Sequence record: OQ973471.1
Length of the DNA stretch: 64,000 nucleotides
Reading direction: 5' to 3' (one strand)
From: Escherichia phage AV101
Both the position numbers and the translations under genes were made by a program. Below the pieces are notes generated by a model that saw nothing but the letters and a program-made list of their open reading frames with translations, was not told where the DNA came from and did no database searches. Positions 7,751 through 37,369 of the stretch are shown piece after piece (position 1 is the stretch's first letter; each line of letters begins with the position of its first letter).

Positions 7751-8056
7751 TCACTTAAACGAGTCAACGGTGGATGTAAGAATTTCGGGGGTGGGTTTGG
7801 CGTCTTGTGGTTCACGGAAACCCACCTTTGCGATGCGGTCCAAGACATTGTACACTTCGCGCGGAAGGGTGTCTACGACCGTGTCCGACATGAACACCAC
7901 GTCTTCTTGGATGGCGTTGTATTCAGCCAGTTTAGCCAGTTCTGATTCTACCAGGGACTTCAGCTTTTGCAATGGGTCGTTGCAATAGTTGAGACGGTTG
8001 CAGTTAGTGAGCGCCTGAGTTAGATTCTCAAACGCTTCTTGTATTTCCTTTGACAT
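7751..8056 (-). CDS. hypothetical protein
   Basis: Internal ATG start MSKEIQEAFENL; 101 aa, helical and acidic. Confidence 0.45.
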   Translation of the reverse strand: MSKEIQEAFENLTQALTNCNRLNYCNDPLQKLKSLVESELAKLAEYNAIQEDVVFMSDTVVDTLPREVYNVLDRIAKVGFREPQDAKPTPEILTSTVDSFK

Positions 8057-8438
8057 TGATATGTGCCTCGTATTGTTGACAGACAACAACTACTTTACGG
8101 CACATGTCGATATCGAACAAGCCAATATGACACTCACGCTTCTTTATCCCCAGCTTATGCGCCAGCCAACTGTAAGCGTCGCTCCTGCTCCTCTCTCCGC
8201 TTTTCCACAATGGGTCAAACGATCTATGGGCTTCCTGCTTAGCAGCACGGAGAGCGGCATTCGCCATCCTTCCCAGAGGTTGTCTGCCGTCGCCATGGGC
8301 ATGGCAACCGACACGGGCATCACATGGAGTGCACACCCAGAACTTCAGATTGCGGAGGTCAGGGCGATGAGGGTAGAGAACATCACCACCGACGAATTCG
8401 GCTGGGAGGCCACAGTAATCACATATAACAGGTTTCAT
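8028..8438 (-). CDS. cysteine-rich (zinc-ribbon-like) protein
   Basis: CDYCG...CTPCDARVGCHAH cysteine/histidine clusters; listed ORF start is GTG, internal ATG (MKPVICDYCG) preferred. Confidence 0.45.
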   Translation of the reverse strand: MKPVICDYCGLPAEFVGGDVLYPHRPDLRNLKFWVCTPCDARVGCHAHGDGRQPLGRMANAALRAAKQEAHRSFDPLWKSGERSRSDAYSWLAHKLGIKKRECHIGLFDIDMCRKVVVVCQQYEAHINVKGNTRSV

Positions 8439-8498
8439 ATTCTTTGTCCAAAAGAAACCCCGCACATGGCGGGGTTGCTCAGGCTGAGGTCAGACAGA

Positions 8499-8914: not shown

Positions 8915-10933
8915 TTAGAACACAACTTTCACAGTGCGGTTGAACGAACCGCTCACCTTCACGAACACGTGGTTGCGTTGGGTGGTAGAGAAGCCCAGAC
9001 CGGACAGCTGCTCAGTGCTTGGCTGTACTTTAATCTTACCACCTAACATTTCAAAAACCTTGCGGTGTTTATCAAGTTCCGGCTTCAGATATTCGTTATA
9101 GAAACCACGGGTGCCGACAGGGTTAGCACAACCTTCCAGGATGAAGAACACGTGCTTGTTGCCAGTCTGCTCGCCGTCCCAATGGTTTGGTGAGTTCAGA
9201 ACCAGCTGTACCTTCTGGAAGACGGAGGTCTTGATGCCCCAGATTTCCTGAGAGCGAGCGTCGTCTTTCAGGGTAGAACGGATGTCTACCACTTGTCCAG
9301 CGCGGACATCAATCACAACAGCCAGAGTGCGATCTTTGTGCTTCAGGCCAGGATGCGAAAAACGCTTGGTCTGGCCTTTGTATTCAACTTCGATTTCGAA
9401 GCCCATATCACAGGTTTCACGCTGGCTGAAGTTAGTGACATAGAACTCGTACAGACCATCACGCAGCTTGCGTTCATCGCTGAAGAAGATGTTCTCCACC
9501 GGACGGCGGTTTGGATCAATGCCGTCCATACCGTTCATGTCGATGTCTAGAGTTGCGCCAGTTGTCGAACGACGGTTGTGATAATACACGTGGTTGTGAA
9601 GAGGATCGTTCAGGCTCAGATCCAGGTCGTCGTTGTTATGCCAAGCCAGTGACACACGGAGGAAGCTGTCGACATTGCCGCCTGCGGTCTTCACGCGCTC
9701 TTTGATGGAGTCGGCCACTTCGCCATTGTACGACCAGCTGAAGCCGTTGTTCCACTTGAACAGGTTAGGAGCGCCTGCGGTGGCCGGAGCGATCAGGGAC
9801 ATCAGGTTGCCAATGTGAGAGTTTTCGACCAGCACTTCCAGGGAATGCGCCTTTGGCAACACGTTGGTCAGGAAGTCGTCGATCGTGATCTCTTCAACCT
9901 TGTCCAGGGACTTGGTCGGAGTCTTCACTTCAGACGCCAGCTGAGCAAACGGGTCCATCTTCTTCTGAGCTGCTAGGTCGGCGAACAGAACGTTGTTGAT
10001 GGTCAGATCGTCATACACGGCATAACGGCGACCCAGTGAATCAGTCAGACCCAGCGCTTCGACTTCTTTCTGCGCGTTTTCAATCATCGACTTCGTGACC
10101 AGCGCGGTTGGGCGCTTGTAGTTCGTCGGAGCGACTTTGGCTTCAAAGGACTTCACGGCGGTTTCCAGATCCCGACCTTCATTGAGGTCTACCAGCAGAG
10201 AGCCAATCACGGTATTACGAATGCCGTGAGGGGTATGACCGTTTGCACGGTAGCCAGTGCGCCAAGCCCACAGAGCGCGTTTCTCTTCTGCAGTTTGTTC
10301 GTACAGGGTCTTGTTCACCACGAACGCCTGCACTGCCGCTTTGTGCTCTTCACCGCGATACAGAGAATTCTGGTCAATCAATTCAAGAACGATTTCAGCC
10401 GATTCCAGAGACAGTTCACGCAGGCCGCGCTCAAACACTTCAATCGCCTGGCGGATTTCACCCTTCTTAGAAGCGATGGTATCTGCCCGCAGAACATAGC
10501 TGCTCAGCAGGTCGGTGTGGAAGTGGTTGTAGGTGCGGACAATACCGTCTTTCATTTCGTGATTCGACCCAACACCAACTTTCTTGGTGTCGTTGAAGTA
10601 CACATCGACGATTGCGTGCTGCTTAACATATGCTGACAGCGCCGCAGCGACAACGTCGTATTCGTTACCCAGCTGAATGTTATCCCAGATAGAGATCACG
10701 TTCAGGTCGGAGTCGATGGTGACCACACCGCCGATATTACGGATGAATTGTTTACAGCAGGTACAGTCGTGTTCGGTACGCTCACGATAAAGCGGGTTAG
10801 TGCCAGCAGGGAAAGAAGACAGATACAGATCCCACAGAGCATCTTTATCGATGTTGGTCATGAACAGACCAGTTGCTGACATGGCCAGCACATTATTGTT
10901 TACGGCTACTGCGAAGGGCTTAAATTCTGACAT
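8915..10933 (-). CDS. large uncharacterised protein (672 aa)
   Basis: Long ORF with AGGAAG RBS; N-terminal HDCTCC cysteine cluster; no family recognised by eye. Confidence 0.6.
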   Translation of the reverse strand: MSEFKPFAVAVNNNVLAMSATGLFMTNIDKDALWDLYLSSFPAGTNPLYRERTEHDCTCCKQFIRNIGGVVTIDSDLNVISIWDNIQLGNEYDVVAAALSAYVKQHAIVDVYFNDTKKVGVGSNHEMKDGIVRTYNHFHTDLLSSYVLRADTIASKKGEIRQAIEVFERGLRELSLESAEIVLELIDQNSLYRGEEHKAAVQAFVVNKTLYEQTAEEKRALWAWRTGYRANGHTPHGIRNTVIGSLLVDLNEGRDLETAVKSFEAKVAPTNYKRPTALVTKSMIENAQKEVEALGLTDSLGRRYAVYDDLTINNVLFADLAAQKKMDPFAQLASEVKTPTKSLDKVEEITIDDFLTNVLPKAHSLEVLVENSHIGNLMSLIAPATAGAPNLFKWNNGFSWSYNGEVADSIKERVKTAGGNVDSFLRVSLAWHNNDDLDLSLNDPLHNHVYYHNRRSTTGATLDIDMNGMDGIDPNRRPVENIFFSDERKLRDGLYEFYVTNFSQRETCDMGFEIEVEYKGQTKRFSHPGLKHKDRTLAVVIDVRAGQVVDIRSTLKDDARSQEIWGIKTSVFQKVQLVLNSPNHWDGEQTGNKHVFFILEGCANPVGTRGFYNEYLKPELDKHRKVFEMLGGKIKVQPSTEQLSGLGFSTTQRNHVFVKVSGSFNRTVKVVF

Positions 10934-11052: not shown

Positions 11053-11277
11053 TCAGACGATCTTACCACCGTCACAAGGCCGAGTATCACCGGAGTTGTA
11101 TGCCAGCATCCCCTGCATCAACAAACGTCTTGGCCCAGAAACTGATTTCTGTTTCCTCAACGTACTGCAGAACCGAGTAGTGCCTGGGTAAGGAGTGTAC
11201 ACGAGACGACCTTGCATACGAGCTTCCAGTAGGAATTCATCTGTGGCTTTGCGTAACTTGAATAATTTCCAGCTCAT
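11053..11277 (-). CDS. hypothetical protein (doubtful)
   Basis: 74-aa ORF with ATGA overlap to the HNH gene stop; no other support. Confidence 0.25.
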   Translation of the reverse strand: MSWKLFKLRKATDEFLLEARMQGRLVYTPYPGTTRFCSTLRKQKSVSGPRRLLMQGMLAYNSGDTRPCDGGKIV

Positions 11278-12203
11278 TTTTCACCCTTGTATCTTTTTAA
11301 CCATTTGACGCATTTTAATGGTTCCCACCCTTTATTGAAACGTTCGATAATGCTGTTTGTCGCATTAAAAGCCTTCAAATCCTTTGTTCCGTACACATGC
11401 ATGAGGGCTTCCGCTCTTTTCATCGTCTTCAAAGATTGCATAAGCAAATCAGCTTTTGACCAATACACATCATTTTCGGGGTTCCATTTCGCTTTCTCCC
11501 AAGGCAACTTCACTAACATACCTTTCTGGGCGTTTTCTTTCTGTTTGGCTCGTTGTTCCGGTGTGAAAGAATTGGTTAAGTCCTTCCCATAATTGGGATT
11601 GAGTTTCCCGAGTTTTGCTTGTCTAGAACGCTCCGAAAATTGCTTCAAATCTGTATTGGCGCGACGCCGCTCTAAAACCTGCCTTTTATATTCAGGGTCA
11701 GAAGCCATTCTTTCATGGATTTTCATCAATCCTTTGGTAATTTTCTTGACTTGCTCTGGAGTTCTCTTATATCCATATTGGGGGTTATTCTTTCCTCTCC
11801 TTCCGTACATTGGGTTGTCTTTACCCACAAACCGAGAAACCCCTTTCCATTGTAAAGATAGTTGTTCGCTGAATTTAATTCTGAAACTTTCATATAAATG
11901 AGAATTAAACCGAATCCCCGATTTATTTCTTCTTCCCCCCTTTCTCATAGCCACCACAGCATACACCATTCTCGTGTTTGGGAAAGCCAATGCCAAGCAC
12001 AAATGCACAAGATAATGTTGCCTGCCTGTTAATCGAACCAAATTGTTCTTATCTTTAAAATATTCAGGGAACATGCTCTTGGGAAGGATGTGGTGTAATT
12101 CAGTGTAGTCACCATCAGAATATTTGAAAGATTGAACCATCCTCAAATACTTCTTGATGAAATGCGGTTTACCGCCTTTAGAAACCAACAATTCATAAAA
12201 CAT
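11274..12203 (-). CDS. HNH homing endonuclease with NUMOD3-like repeats
   Basis: HNH core ELHHILPKSMFPEY...NLVRLTGRQHYLVH; repeated GKDNPMYG / GKNNPQYG / KLNPNYGKD motifs; AT-rich codon usage unlike neighbours. Confidence 0.8.
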   Translation of the reverse strand: MFYELLVSKGGKPHFIKKYLRMVQSFKYSDGDYTELHHILPKSMFPEYFKDKNNLVRLTGRQHYLVHLCLALAFPNTRMVYAVVAMRKGGRRNKSGIRFNSHLYESFRIKFSEQLSLQWKGVSRFVGKDNPMYGRRGKNNPQYGYKRTPEQVKKITKGLMKIHERMASDPEYKRQVLERRRANTDLKQFSERSRQAKLGKLNPNYGKDLTNSFTPEQRAKQKENAQKGMLVKLPWEKAKWNPENDVYWSKADLLMQSLKTMKRAEALMHVYGTKDLKAFNATNSIIERFNKGWEPLKCVKWLKRYKGEK

Positions 12204-12234
12204 AACAGGAACTCCAAAAATGAAAGTTCCTGTT
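12204..12234 (-). promoter_or_regulatory. inverted repeat spanning the RBS of the HNH endonuclease gene
   Basis: AACAGGAAC-(13 nt)-GTTCCTGTT lies immediately 5' of the ATG and includes the GGAG Shine-Dalgarno. Confidence 0.45.
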
Positions 12235-12264
12235 ATAATATACTTTGTTAACTCACAAAGTAAG

Positions 12265-13464
12265 TTACTTTTTAAATAAATTTAGCAGGTTTTTAGAACC
12301 AGATGTCGTCGCTTTAGGTTGTCCTTCCCCATCGTAACCAACCTTCCCGCGCGGTTTTTTGCCTTGGTTGACGGCTTCTACACAACGGGTATATTTCGAC
12401 AATTCACAAAAGTGGTTCTCTAATTGTTGAACATTCATACACTGATCCCAAGGCTCTTCGGCCGACCAAAATTCTTCCCTGTTATACCCAAGAGGACCAT
12501 AAACTGCGTCCTGATTATCCCGTAGCCAGAAGATGCATTCTTCGTGGGTCATACCGTCTTTGTTCAGGAACATCAGGTCGATGCCTGCGCGACAGCCTGG
12601 TCCAGCAACCGTGAAGTGGTTCTCGCTGAAAGGATATCCAGGAATGTACGTGAAATCAACCCAGATCTGATAGGCCAGGAATGGACCAAGCCCTTCGATG
12701 TCGTCATACATGCGCTGGTATACTTCCAGAGGAGTACCAAGGCGCAGCAAGTCATGGAAATAGTTTGGATACTTGTTGACGAATGCCTTCAGAGAACGGA
12801 TAACACGCATCGGCATGTATGGTTCCCATCCCTCGATGGTATATTCACCAGGATTCTCTTCGACCAGCTTTTTGGCGACCTTGTAGTCCATCTCGTCCAC
12901 AATACCCTGGCCAACGCGATACACTTTCACCATCATCCCACCGAAGCACTGCTCCTTGTGGTTGACAACCATCTCAGGGAAAGCCAGGCATTGCTTCAGG
13001 CCGCCCGTGTTGAAGGCATTGGTGAATACCTTACCACCGTCGGCCTCGAACTTCTGAAGTCGTTCGCGGGTTGCATCGAGGTTGATCTCGGCGAATTCTT
13101 TGATCGTCATCGCGCCGCCGATAGCCTGGATTGGATCCCAGAGGTTGAACATGCGGAACATCACGCAGTTGAACATCTTGTCGGCCATACCCAGAGCATC
13201 GTTGTTGACGATGTTGTTGATCAGGTTGAGAGACTGTCTGTCGTGCTCTCTCCGGACGTTACAGAATTTAACCTGGCGTAGTATGGGATTATCAGTCCAA
13301 GGAGCAGGAAGGCGCTGGACGTCCTTCTTGACGTGGATCTGATAACGATCGCGCATCCATTCGTAAGACAGGCTGGTATGGGTCGGACTGAGAACCGGTT
13401 TGGCCGACTTTATCTTTTCTTCACGGACACCGCAGTACGGGACGTCCAGGGCTTTATCTTTCAT
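12265..13464 (-). CDS. hypothetical protein (399 aa)
   Basis: ORF with AAGAGGA RBS; sits where T4 has DNA polymerase gene 43 relative to regA. Confidence 0.6.
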   Translation of the reverse strand: MKDKALDVPYCGVREEKIKSAKPVLSPTHTSLSYEWMRDRYQIHVKKDVQRLPAPWTDNPILRQVKFCNVRREHDRQSLNLINNIVNNDALGMADKMFNCVMFRMFNLWDPIQAIGGAMTIKEFAEINLDATRERLQKFEADGGKVFTNAFNTGGLKQCLAFPEMVVNHKEQCFGGMMVKVYRVGQGIVDEMDYKVAKKLVEENPGEYTIEGWEPYMPMRVIRSLKAFVNKYPNYFHDLLRLGTPLEVYQRMYDDIEGLGPFLAYQIWVDFTYIPGYPFSENHFTVAGPGCRAGIDLMFLNKDGMTHEECIFWLRDNQDAVYGPLGYNREEFWSAEEPWDQCMNVQQLENHFCELSKYTRCVEAVNQGKKPRGKVGYDGEGQPKATTSGSKNLLNLFKK

Positions 13465-13482
13465 GGTATCCTCTTAGAATAC

Positions 13483-13512
13483 GAAAACAGAGGCCATTAT
13501 AGCCTCTGTTGT
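13483..13512 (-). terminator. rho-independent terminator
   Basis: Hairpin ACAGAGGC-TATAATG-GCCTCTGT followed by TTTTCGTATT on the minus strand. Confidence 0.5.
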
Positions 13513-13532
13513 TTAGTGAATAACCGTATATC

Positions 13533-14405
13533 TTAATCGATACGGGTCAGTTGGGTGATAGATGATTGCACTGGGCTGGCCACATAGATACGGACGTTGG
13601 CTTTCCATTCACCCCAGATCAACGGCAGAGTTGGGAAGTTGTCTTCATTGAAAACAAACACGGGAATGTAGCTCTCGACTGTTTCGCCAGAGAACGCCTG
13701 AAAGCCCATCTTGGTGTATCCCATGATCTCGTCAATAAAATCGAACGGAGCGAAGGCAACACCAGCGTGTTCGTTAGAACCGAGCTGGCCTGGAATGGCC
13801 GTGCCCGTCAGAATGATTTCGGTGATCTGGCGCTTAGGCTCGGTGGTCAACATATCAGAGAAGTCAGGCTCTTTGAAGGTTGCCATGTTCTTCAGGAACT
13901 TGCCAGCCGGGTACTCTTTGCCGTCGACAGTGATGGTGTCCACCACTTTGATGCACGCCTGAGGGAATTCCCCTTCGATGCGTAGACTTTCGCGTGGGAA
14001 TCCTTTGTTATAGTAATACTCCAGCGCTGGAACAACTTCACCTTCATTGCGAACGAACTTGCTCATGTTAGAGGCATACACGCGTTGTAGGCATTCGTCA
14101 CCGTCGAAACCAGCAATATGAGCCACACCGTCGTTGACAGTGGTGATGTCGCCCTGGGCATCCATGATCTGGCGCATAATGTCTTTGATGTCGACAACAA
14201 CGGGTTCTTTCAGGACTCGCGGAGATGCAGTGAACTCAATTTTCACCTCGTGGTCGAAATACACCGCTTCCAGCAGTTCACGGGTTTCTTCCAGCACCAG
14301 TTTCGCCTGATTGCGGATCTTACCAAAGTCAGGCGATGTGACGTCGCCCTTTGCATTACCGAAAGCCAGATTCAGATTCACGTTCTTAGAAAATGTAGTT
14401 GTCAT
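13533..14405 (-). CDS. hypothetical protein (290 aa), possible MazG-like NTP pyrophosphohydrolase N-terminal region
   Basis: LVLEETRELLEAVYF resembles the EExxE..EA helix of MazG/HisE-type enzymes; weak, by eye only. Confidence 0.45.
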   Translation of the reverse strand: MTTTFSKNVNLNLAFGNAKGDVTSPDFGKIRNQAKLVLEETRELLEAVYFDHEVKIEFTASPRVLKEPVVVDIKDIMRQIMDAQGDITTVNDGVAHIAGFDGDECLQRVYASNMSKFVRNEGEVVPALEYYYNKGFPRESLRIEGEFPQACIKVVDTITVDGKEYPAGKFLKNMATFKEPDFSDMLTTEPKRQITEIILTGTAIPGQLGSNEHAGVAFAPFDFIDEIMGYTKMGFQAFSGETVESYIPVFVFNEDNFPTLPLIWGEWKANVRIYVASPVQSSITQLTRID

Positions 14406-14421
14406 GATTTAGCGACTCCAG

Positions 14422-14817
14422 TTATTCGCTTTTTGCCTTCGTAGGCCGGATGATGTATTTTGGAACCAGCTTCCATTCAGGAACCTGATCGTGTTTAACC
14501 ACTTTAATGCGAGACATATCGGCTGCTTCGGTGACCTGCTCAGGATGAATGACCTTCACCATGTTCCACTGCTCCAGCAGCTTGATGATTCGGTTCATCC
14601 TCAGGACATCTTCGCGGTTAAATCCGTTGTAATGCCCGTCCAGCATAAATAGATGCTTAAAGTGGACGATATAATACTTGCCGCACTTATGAAGAATATG
14701 GCAAGTTTGATACAGAGTATTCGGCTCTTGGCGCGTGTTTACCCCAATTCGACTCAGTGTTTCCTTGATCCCCAGGAATATACCTGGCCGATCTTGGTTC
14801 AATTGAACTTCAACCAT
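14422..14817 (-). CDS. regA: translational repressor RegA
   Basis: LYQTCHILHKCGKYYIVHFKHL and EWKLVPKYIIRP match T4 RegA (LYQSCHILQKKGLYYIVHFKEM, HEWKLVPKYTIG); GGAG RBS; sits beside the clamp-loader genes as in T4. Confidence 0.8.
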   Translation of the reverse strand: MVEVQLNQDRPGIFLGIKETLSRIGVNTRQEPNTLYQTCHILHKCGKYYIVHFKHLFMLDGHYNGFNREDVLRMNRIIKLLEQWNMVKVIHPEQVTEAADMSRIKVVKHDQVPEWKLVPKYIIRPTKAKSE

Positions 14818-14915
14818 ACAATCAACGATGCTGGCCTCATCGTTGACTGCTGAAATATTCAATATGTCTAGCGTATTACGCGCCATGACTCATTCCCCTT
14901 TTACAATAGTTTGAA

Positions 14916-15338
14916 CTACTTAGCCTTGCGCGGTTTCGCTTTGGCGTTCAGCTCAGTGCGTCTCATCTTCTCGCGTATCTCGGCCAGGACTTCCTTCGGC
15001 AAGAAACGGACGTACTCCGATGCCTTCTCCATGCTGATGTAGAAGTACTCTGAGAGTAACTTCACGTCAGGATCAATCGGACCTTTCTTAGACCATTTGT
15101 CGTAGCGTTTCCGAGCCGGAATGGTGTAAAAGGCATATGACCATTGCATCCATGGAGTGATAGCATGTAGCTTATTCATCTGTTGCGCAGCCACTAGAGT
15201 GTCTTTGCTCTGAGCTAAACCACGCCGCGTCATAAACGGGTCGAATCCTTTCAACACTTCTGGGTCATCAGACCGCAAAAGGTTTTCTTTGCTGCTGTTC
15301 AGAGCAGACAGGTAATCGAACAATCCAAGGGCGGCCAT
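14916..15338 (-). CDS. clamp loader small subunit (T4 gp62-like)
   Basis: ARKRYDKWSKK resembles the T4 gp62 GKRYGKWAK segment; immediately downstream of the gp44-like gene; internal ATG start MAALGLF with GGAAGTGA RBS. Confidence 0.55.
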   Translation of the reverse strand: MAALGLFDYLSALNSSKENLLRSDDPEVLKGFDPFMTRRGLAQSKDTLVAAQQMNKLHAITPWMQWSYAFYTIPARKRYDKWSKKGPIDPDVKLLSEYFYISMEKASEYVRFLPKEVLAEIREKMRRTELNAKAKPRKAK

Positions 15339-15342
15339 AATA

Positions 15343-16332
15343 TCACTTCCACTTGATGTTGAGCATGACATTGGTCAGGAAAAACACAGCATGCAGCCAG
15401 ACATCGCCGACTTGACGGTGTTCAATCTGAGACTGACCACATACGCATACTAGATCAGGGATAGACTCATTCTGAACCAACATTTGCTTCTCTTTATCCT
15501 GTGGTACACAGAACTGGAAGAAGCGGGAATAGAAGTCTTCAGTGATATAGTTCTGGTTGTCGGTCACCCACTGCTTCATCCCAGCCCAGTCATTATCCTT
15601 CAACATATTCACCAACATGCCCATATCGGCCGATTTTAACACAGCCAGTGCACGTTCGTCGATCTTGCCGTAAGTGGTGACGTTATCCTGTAGAACACCC
15701 ATGATGCGGCGGTTATCAGGGAAATGGCGCTTGACAATAGCAGCCAACACAGGAGGGTCATACTCAACACCTTCGCAGCGAAGGATTTCAGCACAGCGGC
15801 GCATGAACTGAAGTTTGACCTCATCAGCCTCGGTCTCATTCCAGATAAAGTCGATTTCACGGCAACGAGAGCGCAGAGGTTCGTTCACACGTTGCTTGGC
15901 GTTGGTGGTCAAGATGAATGAACAGTTCTTGGAGACCTTCTCCACAATACCCTTCAGCGACTCCTGTGCCGCCATAGACAGACGCTCTACTTCGTCGAGG
16001 ATAACGACTTTGCGGCCACCGAATACGCTCACACCAGTAGAGTACTGAATCACGCGGTCACGGATAACGTCGATGCTGTTGTCCAGGGATGCGTTGATCA
16101 TCAGTGGTTGCTTACAACCGATTTCATTACACACGGCCAGGGCGGAGGTAGTCTTGCCAGTACCAGGCTGAGGAGAGTAGAACAGCATAGACGGGATGTT
16201 GCCGTTGCCGCTGGTGATGTAGCCATGGATTTTAGCGCGGACGTCTTGAGGGATGATAATCTCGTCCAGGTTGTCAGGGCGGTACTTGTTTTCCCATGCG
16301 TACTGGTCGGAAACGATAGTGATATTAGACAT
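15343..16332 (-). CDS. clamp loader large subunit (T4 gp44-like AAA+ ATPase)
   Basis: Walker A PQPGTGKTT, clamp-loader-type N-terminus ENKYRPDNLDEIIIPQ, Walker B ILDEVERL. Confidence 0.85.
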   Translation of the reverse strand: MSNITIVSDQYAWENKYRPDNLDEIIIPQDVRAKIHGYITSGNGNIPSMLFYSPQPGTGKTTSALAVCNEIGCKQPLMINASLDNSIDVIRDRVIQYSTGVSVFGGRKVVILDEVERLSMAAQESLKGIVEKVSKNCSFILTTNAKQRVNEPLRSRCREIDFIWNETEADEVKLQFMRRCAEILRCEGVEYDPPVLAAIVKRHFPDNRRIMGVLQDNVTTYGKIDERALAVLKSADMGMLVNMLKDNDWAGMKQWVTDNQNYITEDFYSRFFQFCVPQDKEKQMLVQNESIPDLVCVCGQSQIEHRQVGDVWLHAVFFLTNVMLNIKWK

Positions 16333-16414: not shown

Positions 16415-17083
16415 TTACTCAATCTGTGCGCCGACGAAGTAATTGATCGTCGCGTCGGATGATTGGAAGTTCACCATTTGTAGATCAGCACATGCACGCA
16501 GAGTGTAGTTGCCTTCGATCATTTTCAGGTTGGCAACATCCAGTGGCATTACGAAGTCCGGCAGCGCGGTTTCGCCCAGCTCAACAGTGTAGTTGTTGGA
16601 GTTGTCCAGGGTAGTGGTGGTTGCAACCAGGCGAGTTTTGCCACCCTGAGCAACCAGGCGCACAGTCTTGTGTCCGAGGGTAGAACAGGCGCGGGTCAGT
16701 TCTTTCATCTTCTCTGGAGTGATGATCGCTTCAAAGTCGACAGACGGCAGTTCAATAGTATCAGCCGGGACAACCGTGAGTTCTTTAGCAGAACGCCAGA
16801 ATTGCAGCTGAGAACTTTCGCCTTTCAACAGGATGTAGTCCTGATGGAATTCGGCTTTGGCACCTTTGAAGGAAGGTAGGCGCTGGATGGCCAGAAGTTT
16901 GGTCAGGTCCAGAATCGGGAACTCAAACGGGAAGTCTTCTTCGATCTGCGCCACGGCGATCACAGTAGAAGAATCATTAATACTGCGCAGCATCTTGCCC
17001 GGTGTCAGAACGATAGATGGGTTGATGGTCTCAAAGTTGGCCAGCAACTGAAGTGTACGTTCGGAGAGAGTGATCTCTTGCAT
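16415..17083 (-). CDS. sliding clamp (T4 gp45-like)
   Basis: TLQLLANFETINPSIVLTPG and VANLKMIEGNYTL resemble T4 gp45 (TTALLKNFATINSGIMLKSG, MANMKMQPGNYKL); 222 aa. Confidence 0.7.
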   Translation of the reverse strand: MQEITLSERTLQLLANFETINPSIVLTPGKMLRSINDSSTVIAVAQIEEDFPFEFPILDLTKLLAIQRLPSFKGAKAEFHQDYILLKGESSQLQFWRSAKELTVVPADTIELPSVDFEAIITPEKMKELTRACSTLGHKTVRLVAQGGKTRLVATTTTLDNSNNYTVELGETALPDFVMPLDVANLKMIEGNYTLRACADLQMVNFQSSDATINYFVGAQIE

Positions 17084-35149: not shown

Positions 35150-37369
35150 TCACCGTCTCAGCCATTCTTCCATAGACATACCAGAGCGTTCATCATAAAC
35201 CTGAATTCCACCGAACCCTGGGATGTTCTCCACAGAGTGAGGATCTGGCGTCGACATCATACCTCCAAATGGTAGCATCTGTGATTCTTCCATCGCAGAC
35301 AACCGCCCCCTCATATCAACCGAGATGCTGGAGTTGGTGAGATCACTAAACCATTCTTGTTTCACCGCCCATGCATAGAGCACAAGAGGCATTACACAGT
35401 CATCATGACAACCATCATCGGCTTCATACCTTGTTCCAGTCCATACGAATGTACTGAGTTCATCTATCGTGTCCTGGTCATCTATCACCAGCATTTCACG
35501 TTCAATCAGGGCTTTCAGGTTGGCGCAGCCGTTTGTGCGCACCTTCTTGTTGGTATTGATACCAGGTTCAGGGCGGCGACCACCGATTCTCTTGCCTGTA
35601 CCCTTGGTATCTGTTGTGGTGAAGATGATCTCGGGATATTCAATTTCCTGGTATAGAATTGTGATTACCTGACCACCCACGTCGTTGTTAGTCTCGACTA
35701 GCATCGGGCACGTTCCATACTTCTCGCCCATATCGGCGATTGTGTACGCATACATCATTGGAGGTATCGTGTTATTTCGATACTTGGCTGCGATCTTGTG
35801 AGGATAGTCTGTGATGTCGATAATGGTCAGCACAGAATAATCCCCTTCAACACCCTTGCCTGTATCTGCGATACCCATATAAATGCGCTTAGGATCGTAA
35901 TCGTGATAAATCTTGGTGAACTCGTTCGGCTCCTGATACAGCTTCGAGGTCATCTTGTCCAGACACTTGGCAGGTATCAGTGATCCCACAGAACCACGGA
36001 ACTTAATGCCAAATTCTTGATCGAAACGCGCATCACCCAGCTTCGCCCTTTGTTTGGATTCCCAGTCTGGATCTTTGGTATACGTTGGAACACGATACCA
36101 TGGGACCTCTGTGAGTTTGAAGTCGTTGTATTGTGGGTGTTCTGGGTTCGCCTTGGTGACGATGTCGTAGAACAACCCGCGCTGACCTTTCGGCGTACTG
36201 GTCAGAATACAACGTGAAGTCTCTGCAGATGCAATCGCCGGGAATGTAGACTCCCAGAATTCAAAGTCGTTTTCAATGAACGCCACTTCGTCCACATACA
36301 GGAGCGATACAGATCGACCACGGATGGAGTCGGAAGATGTCGCATAGGCGTAGATCTTTGATCCGTTTTCGAACTCTATCAGCGTGGAACCGAACTTCTC
36401 ACAACCCTGTTGGAGGAAGAATGGCAAATCCTGGTATGCCTTGCGGATACGGTCTAGGATTTCAATCGCCTGCTTCTCTTTGTTCGCCAGTACCGCGATC
36501 TCTTTGTCAGAGTGGAACATCGCATACCAGAGCAGGAACGCTGCCACGACTGTCGTGTTGTGGCTGAGGAAGCCGTTGGTGTAGTAGCGCTGATCACTAG
36601 ATTTCACCTGTAGGTCATACATGTGATGCGTCTCACCAGTCTGCCAAACCTCACGGATTTCTTCTGGACCTTCTGACGTCATGATGTATGACCCGGCATT
36701 CAGGTCTTTGGCAAATATCTCCTTCATTTCCGGAGTGAAGAACATATGTTTGTCGGCCACGTTAATTCGTCGCCCGGTAACGGTGACAATAACGAATTCC
36801 GCATATTTCTTCGTCTTATGCGCTGCGATAACCGGAACCCAGCCACTATCGGATTGCACAAAGTAACGTTTGCCGAAGCGGCTGTCCACGAACTTGTCAT
36901 GGTTGCCAATGGTATTCAGCGGCACAGCGTGGTTGACGTCCTCGAAGCGGCTGTGAAGCTCCCCTATGGTCAGGAGCAACTGCTCTTGGCTGAGAGTATC
37001 GTAAACTGTGACAAGCGTGTCACCTTTTACACATTTCCCAGACTGACGAGCCTGGACGACCGCATTGAATCGATAGTCCTGGAAGTCATGGAACAACTGC
37101 TTCTGGTAATCGTGCATGTCAAAGAGGATGAAGCCTTTATCGATGGTCGTGATCTTGTAGTAGTTGGCGGCGAAGTAATGGGCGTCCATCGCACACTCGA
37201 CGAACTCCGATTCTTGTTCGTCGGTTAGCATCAACTCCACACGAGGAGCACGCACAGACGGCTTGCGCATGAACGTTTGGTCCATACGCAGTCTGACGTC
37301 TTCTGTCTTAAACCCCGTCTTGAGTGGGGCGTATTCTACATCACGCTTCTGATACGCCATTGTCTTCAC
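35150..37369 (-). CDS. terminase large subunit (T4 gp17-like) containing a mini-intein
   Basis: Walker A QSGK/T split by the intein; nuclease domain follows; 739 aa including 159 intein residues. Confidence 0.85.
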   Translation of the reverse strand: MKTMAYQKRDVEYAPLKTGFKTEDVRLRMDQTFMRKPSVRAPRVELMLTDEQESEFVECAMDAHYFAANYYKITTIDKGFILFDMHDYQKQLFHDFQDYRFNAVVQARQSGKCVKGDTLVTVYDTLSQEQLLLTIGELHSRFEDVNHAVPLNTIGNHDKFVDSRFGKRYFVQSDSGWVPVIAAHKTKKYAEFVIVTVTGRRINVADKHMFFTPEMKEIFAKDLNAGSYIMTSEGPEEIREVWQTGETHHMYDLQVKSSDQRYYTNGFLSHNTTVVAAFLLWYAMFHSDKEIAVLANKEKQAIEILDRIRKAYQDLPFFLQQGCEKFGSTLIEFENGSKIYAYATSSDSIRGRSVSLLYVDEVAFIENDFEFWESTFPAIASAETSRCILTSTPKGQRGLFYDIVTKANPEHPQYNDFKLTEVPWYRVPTYTKDPDWESKQRAKLGDARFDQEFGIKFRGSVGSLIPAKCLDKMTSKLYQEPNEFTKIYHDYDPKRIYMGIADTGKGVEGDYSVLTIIDITDYPHKIAAKYRNNTIPPMMYAYTIADMGEKYGTCPMLVETNNDVGGQVITILYQEIEYPEIIFTTTDTKGTGKRIGGRRPEPGINTNKKVRTNGCANLKALIEREMLVIDDQDTIDELSTFVWTGTRYEADDGCHDDCVMPLVLYAWAVKQEWFSDLTNSSISVDMRGRLSAMEESQMLPFGGMMSTPDPHSVENIPGFGGIQVYDERSGMSMEEWLRR
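36557..37033 (-). other. mini-intein (159 aa) in the terminase P-loop
   Basis: Begins CVKGDTLV directly after ARQSGK; ends MYDLQV...NGFLSHN followed by Thr +1 and TTVVAAF; too short to hold a homing-endonuclease domain. Confidence 0.7.

Follow-up and report, generated by a model that had tools for sequence, protein, structure and literature searches.

Genes downstream of regA

The DNA analysed here is a stretch of 64,000 nt from Escherichia phage AV101 (sequence record OQ973471.1), referred to below as the window, and the locus of interest (12265-14405) comprises two minus-strand genes that follow regA and encode proteins of 290 and 399 residues. The window DNA is that of an Agtrevirus-type phage of the Ackermannviridae, and its proteins are identical to those of AV101. 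Membership of the 399-residue protein in the Pfam family PF18723, and its involvement in DNA modification based on 5-hydroxymethyl-2'-deoxyuridine (5-hmdU), are well supported; the 290-residue protein appears to be a catalytically competent nucleotide pyrophosphohydrolase. As an explanation of the whole we consider it likely, from sequence comparison, that both genes are conserved parts of the apparatus that replaces thymidine, by way of 5-hmdU, with 5-(2-aminoethoxy)methyl-2'-deoxyuridine (5-NeOmdU).

Along the minus strand, the genes for the sliding clamp gp45 (16415-17083), the clamp loader gp44 (15343-16332) and gp62 (14916-15371), all identified through Pfam and PHROGs, precede that for the translational repressor regA (14422-14886; Pfam Translat_reg, E 2.1e-34; phrog_242, E 3e-53), which serves as the upstream synteny anchor. 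The gene for the 290-residue protein (13533-14405) is an open reading frame (ORF) whose ATG, with GGAG on its 5' side, lies 16 nt from the regA stop; that for the 399-residue protein (12265-13464), also an ATG ORF, has AAGAGGA as its ribosome-binding site. Beyond it, on the same strand, lies a gene for a 309-residue HNH/NUMOD3 homing endonuclease (11274-12203; phrog_655, E 7e-61). The 290-, 399- and 309-residue products are exact matches to consecutive AV101 proteins (WJJ54103, WJJ54102 and WJJ54101, respectively), all of them labelled 'hypothetical'. Hundreds of homologs were found for the 290-residue and for the 399-residue protein, and the two ORFs are real genes, not chance ORFs; their coordinates agree exactly with those of the two proteins placed after regA in an earlier, sequence-only reading of this DNA.

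The DNA of this region is 94.7% identical to that of Escherichia phage vB_EcoM-RPN242 (Ackermannviridae, Aglimvirinae) and matches 282 phage records, nearly all with enterobacterial hosts. The order regA, MazG-like gene, 399-residue-protein gene is kept in RPN242 and in phage ViI, and in many further Ackermannviridae records matching product names recur at the aligned region. The 68-nt gap between the two genes contains a terminator-like hairpin on the minus strand (13486-13510; 11-bp stem, 3-nt loop, T-rich tail; consensus scan only), and in the record of phage LIMEstone1 a terminator is annotated within the match to its ortholog of gp160, the ViI counterpart of the 399-residue protein described below. 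Because of the hairpin, the gene for the 290-residue protein probably closes the gp45-gp44-gp62-regA transcription unit; the gene for the 399-residue protein is then probably read by read-through or from a signal of its own.

Identity to RPN242 varies along the region. It is 98-99% on the flanks and 73-86% across 11400-12900, an interval that takes in the endonuclease gene together with the 3' half of the 399-residue-protein gene, and it recovers gradually by 13500. Such a pattern resembles a tract of recombination or of co-conversion associated with homing.

In phage T4 the corresponding genes run 45-44-62-regA-43. Genes 45, 44, 62 and regA stand in the same order and orientation here, but gene 43, encoding DNA polymerase, is not adjacent to regA, as the sequence-only reading had pointed out. 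A tblastn search with the ViI polymerase as query detected no DNA polymerase homolog in the whole window, and in ViI the polymerase gene (Vi01_190, 145128-148124) lies some 57 kb from the regA cluster (~87-92 kb), near the hypermodification genes gp243 and gp247. The departure from T4 synteny is a family-wide trait; the polymerase gene just sits elsewhere. In the distantly related Acinetobacter phage SH-Ab 15599 (MH517022, 1618-5251; 15599 below), gp45, gp44, gp62 and regA are followed by Pplase2/ADDT, an experimentally characterised diaminopropane:DNA transferase whose start overlaps the end of regA. It follows from this order that the slot after regA is linked to hypermodification in both lineages: it carries a thymine-hypermodification enzyme in each (PF18723 here, ADDT in 15599).

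The 399-residue protein and family PF18723

The 399-residue protein matches PF18723 (HMUDK_hel) at 267 bits (cutoff 25; E 2.6e-79) over profile positions 4-279 of 281. This family was formerly called aGPT-Pplase clade 1, and some GenBank records keep the name 'aGPT-Pplase1 domain-containing protein'; gp72 of PhiW-14 and the C-terminal half of SP10 gp186 carry the same label (Lee 2018, PMC5889632). Over its full length the protein is 81% identical to ViI Vi01_130c (YP_004327501, orf00160, 'aG/PT-PPlase1'). The orf and gp numbering of ViI agree where checked (YP_004327432 = orf00067, gp67; YP_004327553 = orf00226, gp226; YP_004327565 = orf00243, gp243), and Vi01_130c is therefore gp160. This ViI protein occupies the same slot two genes after regA, falls in the same Pfam family and belongs to a gene set unique to thymidine-hypermodifying phages; the two loci differ in that a homing endonuclease gene follows the 399-residue-protein gene here, whereas ViI has none at this spot.

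Every thymidine-hypermodifying phage examined (ViI, M6, PaMx11, 15599) has a PF18723 protein. In the SP10-like Bacillus phage Goe26 the domain is fused to a 5-hmdU kinase domain; the PF18723 gene comes directly after the kinase gene in PaMx11 (gp49, then gp50) and M6 (gp54, then gp55), follows a P-loop kinase in Microbacterium phage Pherbot, and stands directly before the dUMP hydroxymethylase gene in 15599 (AXF41385). Phage 15599 had been tested for absence of PF18723 as a discriminator for a thymine-forming role, and as AXF41385 is present it does not discriminate. In Brevibacterium phage LuckyBarnes (1822-5837) the PF18723 gene, gp38 (E 5e-68), comes after a 517-residue thymidylate-synthase homolog and two glycosyltransferases. 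This suggests another modification derived from 5-hmdU, perhaps a glycosylated one, for which PF18723 acts without its usual kinase partner. Neither the 5-hmdU DNA kinase gene nor the dUMP hydroxymethylase gene lies in the 64-kb window; ViI encodes gp67, gp243 and thyA, and a review describes the modification genes as conserved across the Ackermannviridae family (PMC11721090).

Alignments of PF18723 were built from 10 and then 19 members, taken from the Ackermannviridae and from Vibrio, Pseudomonas, Ralstonia, Bacillus, Brevibacterium, Microbacterium and Acinetobacter phages; seven members from outside the Ackermannviridae were confirmed by Pfam as PF18723, and RP13 ORF120 was aligned as a putative member. 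Residues R40, F67, N69, R72, D75, F262, D270, G288-P289-G290, G294, C353, E354 and K357 (numbering of the 399-residue protein) are invariant, and Y265 is shared by 90% or more of the members. The alignments, together with the register described below, point to the motif N345-V-Q-Q-L-E349-N-H-F-C353-E354-L-S-K357 (12394-12432, minus strand) as the site of a predicted active-site Cys-Glu. An extra beta-hairpin insert (residues ~150-215) and a second GPG hairpin are also present. Neither the protein nor its profile found a match in the PDB by sequence or profile search.

Comparison with ADDT

The ADDT family (PF18724, formerly aGPT-Pplase2) includes PaMx11 gp46/PUGT (PDB 8Z2M), M6 gp51, ViI gp247 and 15599 Pplase2. 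BLASTP detected no similarity between the 399-residue protein and ViI gp247, and the Pfam ADDT model, which scores gp247 at 197.6 bits, left the 399-residue protein unmatched at E values up to 10. Alignment of its profile to the ADDT profile by hhalign gave E 6e-5 at 65% probability, and a second, more diverse PF18723 profile returned the same register at 19%. Both runs set a helix-hairpin-helix (HhH) motif, G258-L-G-P-F-L-A-Y-Q266 (12667-12693, minus strand), against LFGPWIGFK (142-150) of gp46. The register further places NVQQLENHFCE (345-354) on gp46 NIQEVETILCK (239-248), with E349 on the metal ligand E243 and C353 on the catalytic C247. The HhH fold also shows similarity to the HhH-GPD DNA glycosylase superfamily, and by homology the 399-residue protein appears to be a distant relative of ADDT with a DNA-glycosylase-like HhH fold.

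Membership of ADDT itself is not supported. In ADDT the Cys is an essential nucleophile and a Glu, with the Thr next to it, binds an essential metal (PMC8989533, PMC11472151, PMC13458397); D175 of gp46 has been probed by mutation (PMC11472151). In the register obtained, the 399-residue protein does not preserve the full set of these residues, the Glu-Thr pair (E222/T223 in 15599) and gp46 D175, and it differs from ADDT in being dispensable for serine transfer and decarboxylation. A shared mechanism, in which the Cys attacks a flipped-out 5-substituted uracil, is a reasonable inference only.

The 290-residue protein

The 290-residue protein is assigned to phrog_2144, 'MazG-like pyrophosphatase' (PHROGs, E 7.6e-132), and is the ortholog of ViI Vi01_131c/orf00161 (59% identity). 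Neither the whole protein nor its halves, searched separately, matched a Pfam family (E up to 10) or an NCBIfam model (E up to 1); a direct sequence search of the PDB and the defence-related models of PADLOC likewise gave no match. Two domains can be distinguished: an all-alpha nucleoside triphosphate pyrophosphohydrolase (NTP-PPase) domain of the DR2231/MazG type (residues 1-187; 13845-14405, minus strand), and a beta-rich C-terminal domain of ~100 residues (190-290; 13536-13838, minus strand), delimited from sequence clusters, the structural model and the lack of a Pfam match.

Among solved structures, the best match to a profile of 58 N-domain homologs is DR2231 of Deinococcus radiodurans (PDB 2YEU; E 1e-8), with weaker matches to classical MazG proteins. 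Residues E40, E43 and D86 do not vary in two homolog alignments (58 and 81 sequences), and D82 is kept in 90% or more of the sequences; these residues align with the EESAE ... ELAD segments of DR2231 and, by that register, the codons for E40 and E43 (ExxE) and for D82 and D86 (DxxD) make up a predicted metal site (14148-14288, minus strand). The phage domain shares with DR2231 the motifs ExxE, (E/D)xxD and SNxSK; it differs in an inserted loop (residues 45-72), a beta extension with a GKFLK motif and the fused C-terminal domain. With its metal-binding motifs intact, the protein looks like a catalytically competent (d)NTP pyrophosphohydrolase, and the MazG-like character suspected in the sequence-only reading is borne out by the phrog_2144 assignment, the DR2231 profile match and the ExxE...DxxD residues.

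The N-domain and the two-domain protein differ in distribution. The full-length architecture occurs in only three 50%-identity clusters (P0241-P0243) among 1.8 billion cluster representatives, and the C-terminal domain, for which Pfam gives no match, is detectable only within the family; it was modelled at a predicted local distance difference test (pLDDT) score of 55-75, with the last 20 residues disordered. Stand-alone N-domains are found in ~75-kb Klebsiella and Pectobacterium phages, in a 249-kb Enterobacter phage and in Pseudomonas phage SM1, with a weaker stand-alone match in Felixounavirus. The C-terminal domain is missing from the homologs in Erwinia phage phiEa2809 and 15599. Among hypermodifying phages, PhiW-14 gp206 is a stand-alone N-domain homolog (31% identity, E 2e-8), as is AXF41522 of 15599 (E 5e-35 by profile search).

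Possible nucleotide roles of the 290-residue protein

The 290-residue protein would release pyrophosphate from a (d)NTP and leave the monophosphate, thereby shaping the nucleotide pool that feeds the phage polymerase; the likeliest substrate would be a pyrimidine dNTP, for instance dUTP. The sequence-only reading had hinted at such pool editing, and the DR2231/MazG-type homology and the intact metal site argue for it.

The bifunctional dTTPase/dUTPase gp18 of 15599 is the sole characterised enzyme of its kind in this phage group (PMC13458397). A similar dNTP-pool editing role is proposed for gp18 and for the 290-residue protein, and the two fall in the same broad all-alpha NTP-PPase superfamily; gp18 differs in joining a PF08761 dimeric dUTPase to a dNMP-kinase-like domain, and its ViI counterpart is orf00063, not orf00161. 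Both gp18 and orf00063 are PF08761 proteins and match each other at E 4e-8, and orf00063 adjoins dnk, thyA and gp67. ViI-type genomes carry three NTP-PPase genes, orf00011, orf00063 and orf00161 (ViI 7891-8469 and 36055-36600), of which only orf00063 matches the characterised 15599 enzyme. Orthology of the 290-residue protein to gp18 was considered and rejected, BLASTP giving E 1.5 to gp18 and no match to orf00063.

An explanation in which the 290-residue protein is itself the phage dTTPase/dUTPase, removing dTTP so that only 5-hmdUTP enters DNA, could draw on its closest solved relative by profile, DR2231, a MazG-like enzyme with reported dUTP cleavage (PMC5122711), on the intact metal-binding motifs, and on the homolog in PhiW-14, whose infection induces a dTTPase (PMC13458397). 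It has to contend with the pairing of PF08761 gp18 with orf00063 near dnk-thyA-gp67, with the presence of three NTP-PPase genes per ViI-type genome and with the frequency of the N-domain in phages that are not known to contain hmdU. Because the role of main dTTPase/dUTPase fits the separate dimeric-dUTPase-type gene beside thyA, we think the 290-residue protein is unlikely to fill it. A general house-cleaning or host-reprogramming MazG, unrelated to thymidine hypermodification, which would clear faulty dNTPs, skew the dGTP/dCTP pools or break down signalling nucleotides, is to our minds possible but doubtful. The wide occurrence of stand-alone N-domain homologs in unrelated phages is what one would expect of such a protein, and a cyanophage MazG is reported to be a pyrophosphohydrolase unable to hydrolyse the magic-spot nucleotides (p)ppGpp (PMC6850273); set against this are the retention of the gene next to that for PF18723 in the enterobacterial Ackermannviridae examined, the homologs kept in hypermodifying PhiW-14 and 15599, and the failure of the PADLOC defence-related models to match.

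Proposed place of the 399-residue protein in the hypermodification pathway

Hypermodifying phages replicate with 5-hmdUTP, and a DNA kinase then makes 5-phosphomethyl-2'-deoxyuridine (5-PmdU); in the ADDT reaction the Cys attacks C6 and phosphate is lost, leaving an exocyclic methylene that is captured by a nucleophile. ViI gp160 was part of the five-lysate mixture that converted 5-hmdU DNA to 5-NeOmdU (PMC5889632). A kinase (gp67 or gp243), the serine:DNA transferase gp247 and the pyridoxal phosphate (PLP) decarboxylase gp226 account for 5-NeOmdU, and neither gp160 nor gp55, its counterpart in M6, is given a role there (PMC8989533). According to the same paper, any 5-hmdU that does not become the hypermodified base is turned into thymine prior to packaging, a step for which the papers cited here name no enzyme (PMC8989533).

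We envisage that the 399-residue protein would bind duplex DNA after replication and flip out a 5-hmdU already phosphorylated by the 5-hmdU DNA kinase, whereupon Cys353, with Glu354 and Lys357, would attack C6 and expel the phosphate as in ADDT. The product would differ from O-serinyl-thymidine; the leading candidate would be canonical thymine formed from leftover 5-hmdU, and the alternative a different adduct. In its most specific form, PF18723 would be a polymer-level thymine synthase, taking 5-phosphomethyl-dU through an ADDT-like exocyclic methylene to thymine by reduction, a proposal that we regard as quite improbable.

Two other explanations of the 399-residue protein draw on the same fold. 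As the main rival reading, it might be a non-catalytic DNA-binding or base-flipping accessory of the 5-hmdU DNA kinase, raising the efficiency of phosphorylation or setting its sequence context. The HhH is a DNA-binding fold, Pfam names the family a 'kinase helical domain', the domain is fused to the kinase in Goe26 and adjacent to it in PaMx11, M6 and Pherbot, and PF18723 was dispensable in all in vitro reconstitutions, in which the M6 kinase alone phosphorylated ~23% of 5-hmdU and so left room for a helper (PMC8989533). A catalytic protein is indicated instead by the active-site-like set of residues (Cys-Glu-x-x-Lys with Asp75, Asp270, Arg40, Arg72 and Asn69) that stays invariant at ~20% identity, by the alignment of its Cys with the catalytic Cys of ADDT, and by the position of the gene away from the kinase in ViI-type phages and in 15599; we hold the accessory role to be a tentative possibility, on the unlikely side. 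A true DNA glycosylase excising uracil, unmodified T or host-type bases is suggested by the superfamily resemblance, but we rate it very improbable indeed. No HhH-GPD Pfam match was obtained for the 399-residue protein at E 10, its identity to glycosylases is 6-12%, and neither an HhH-GPD sequence-family match nor the catalytic Asp (and Lys) after the hairpin was found. The conserved Cys corresponds to the ADDT-type nucleophile and not to the Asp/Lys pair of glycosylases, and gene fusion and gene order tie PF18723 to 5-hmdU kinases and dUMP hydroxymethylases.

The reading of both proteins as parts of the thymidine-replacement apparatus must be tempered by several observations. Reconstitution of the M6 and PaMx11 pathways succeeded with their PF18723 proteins left out (PMC8989533), and E. 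coli could be given dapT in the absence of the 15599 homologs (PMC13458397); neither gene is therefore required for the known chemistry. The activities given here to both proteins, like those of their close homologs, are predicted from sequence. For the 399-residue protein, hhalign support for homology of PF18723 to ADDT is modest at the two probabilities obtained; E349 is replaced by Gln in the actinophage members, D175 of gp46 aligns with G288/P289, and Thr244, beside the gp46 metal ligand, corresponds to Asn350. No reductant- or cofactor-binding domain that could supply hydride for thymine formation is visible in the protein, and in LuckyBarnes no kinase gene lies within 5 kb of the PF18723 gene. 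On the side of the 290-residue protein, the characterised dTTPase/dUTPase of 15599 matches a different ViI gene, and the N-domain also occurs in the ~75-kb Klebsiella and Pectobacterium phages, Felixounavirus and Pseudomonas phages, none of which, to our knowledge, is an hmdU phage.

The proposal that these are DNA- or nucleotide-modification enzymes, made from the sequence alone, nonetheless stands for both. For the 399-residue protein it is upheld by the PF18723 match, the orthology to gp160 and the association with kinase and hydroxymethylase genes, and for the 290-residue protein by its MazG type; both families had already been named.

Other features of the window

A conserved 672-residue protein (8915-10933, minus strand; phrog_1735) matched nothing in Pfam, NCBIfam, PADLOC or the PDB. 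Its gene is a single ORF here and in RPN242 and corresponds to two coding sequences in ViI (491 and 183 residues; Vi01_129c and 128c), reflecting either a frameshift or sequencing error in ViI or a real split. Between 46000 and 56000 the G+C fraction falls to 0.39-0.43, as against ~0.48-0.52 elsewhere, over four large minus-strand ORFs (733, 767, 648 and 1102 residues) that correspond by position to the ViI tail-spike/tail-fibre block; such a composition would fit horizontal exchange of receptor-binding genes.

Significance

Both genes are already known: they have been deposited with AV101, their families have names, and papers on hypermodification discuss gp160. Finding two genes with links to nucleotide and DNA modification at this locus is a correct re-discovery, and no new kind of system is involved. 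What the analysis adds is a register that puts the family-invariant Cys-Glu of PF18723 on the catalytic Cys of ADDT, the finding that the MazG-like protein and the characterised dTTPase/dUTPase are not counterparts, and the repeated use of the slot after regA for hypermodification enzymes, which ties base modification to the clamp/clamp-loader transcription unit. Although PF18723 has an invariant Cys-Glu where ADDT has its catalytic Cys, every reconstituted pathway could do without it. Because the thymine-forming step has no named enzyme in the cited pathway papers, gp160-type proteins are concrete candidates for it; if PF18723 were indeed a thymine synthase, it would set which positions of the phage genome stay T and which become 5-NeOmdU.

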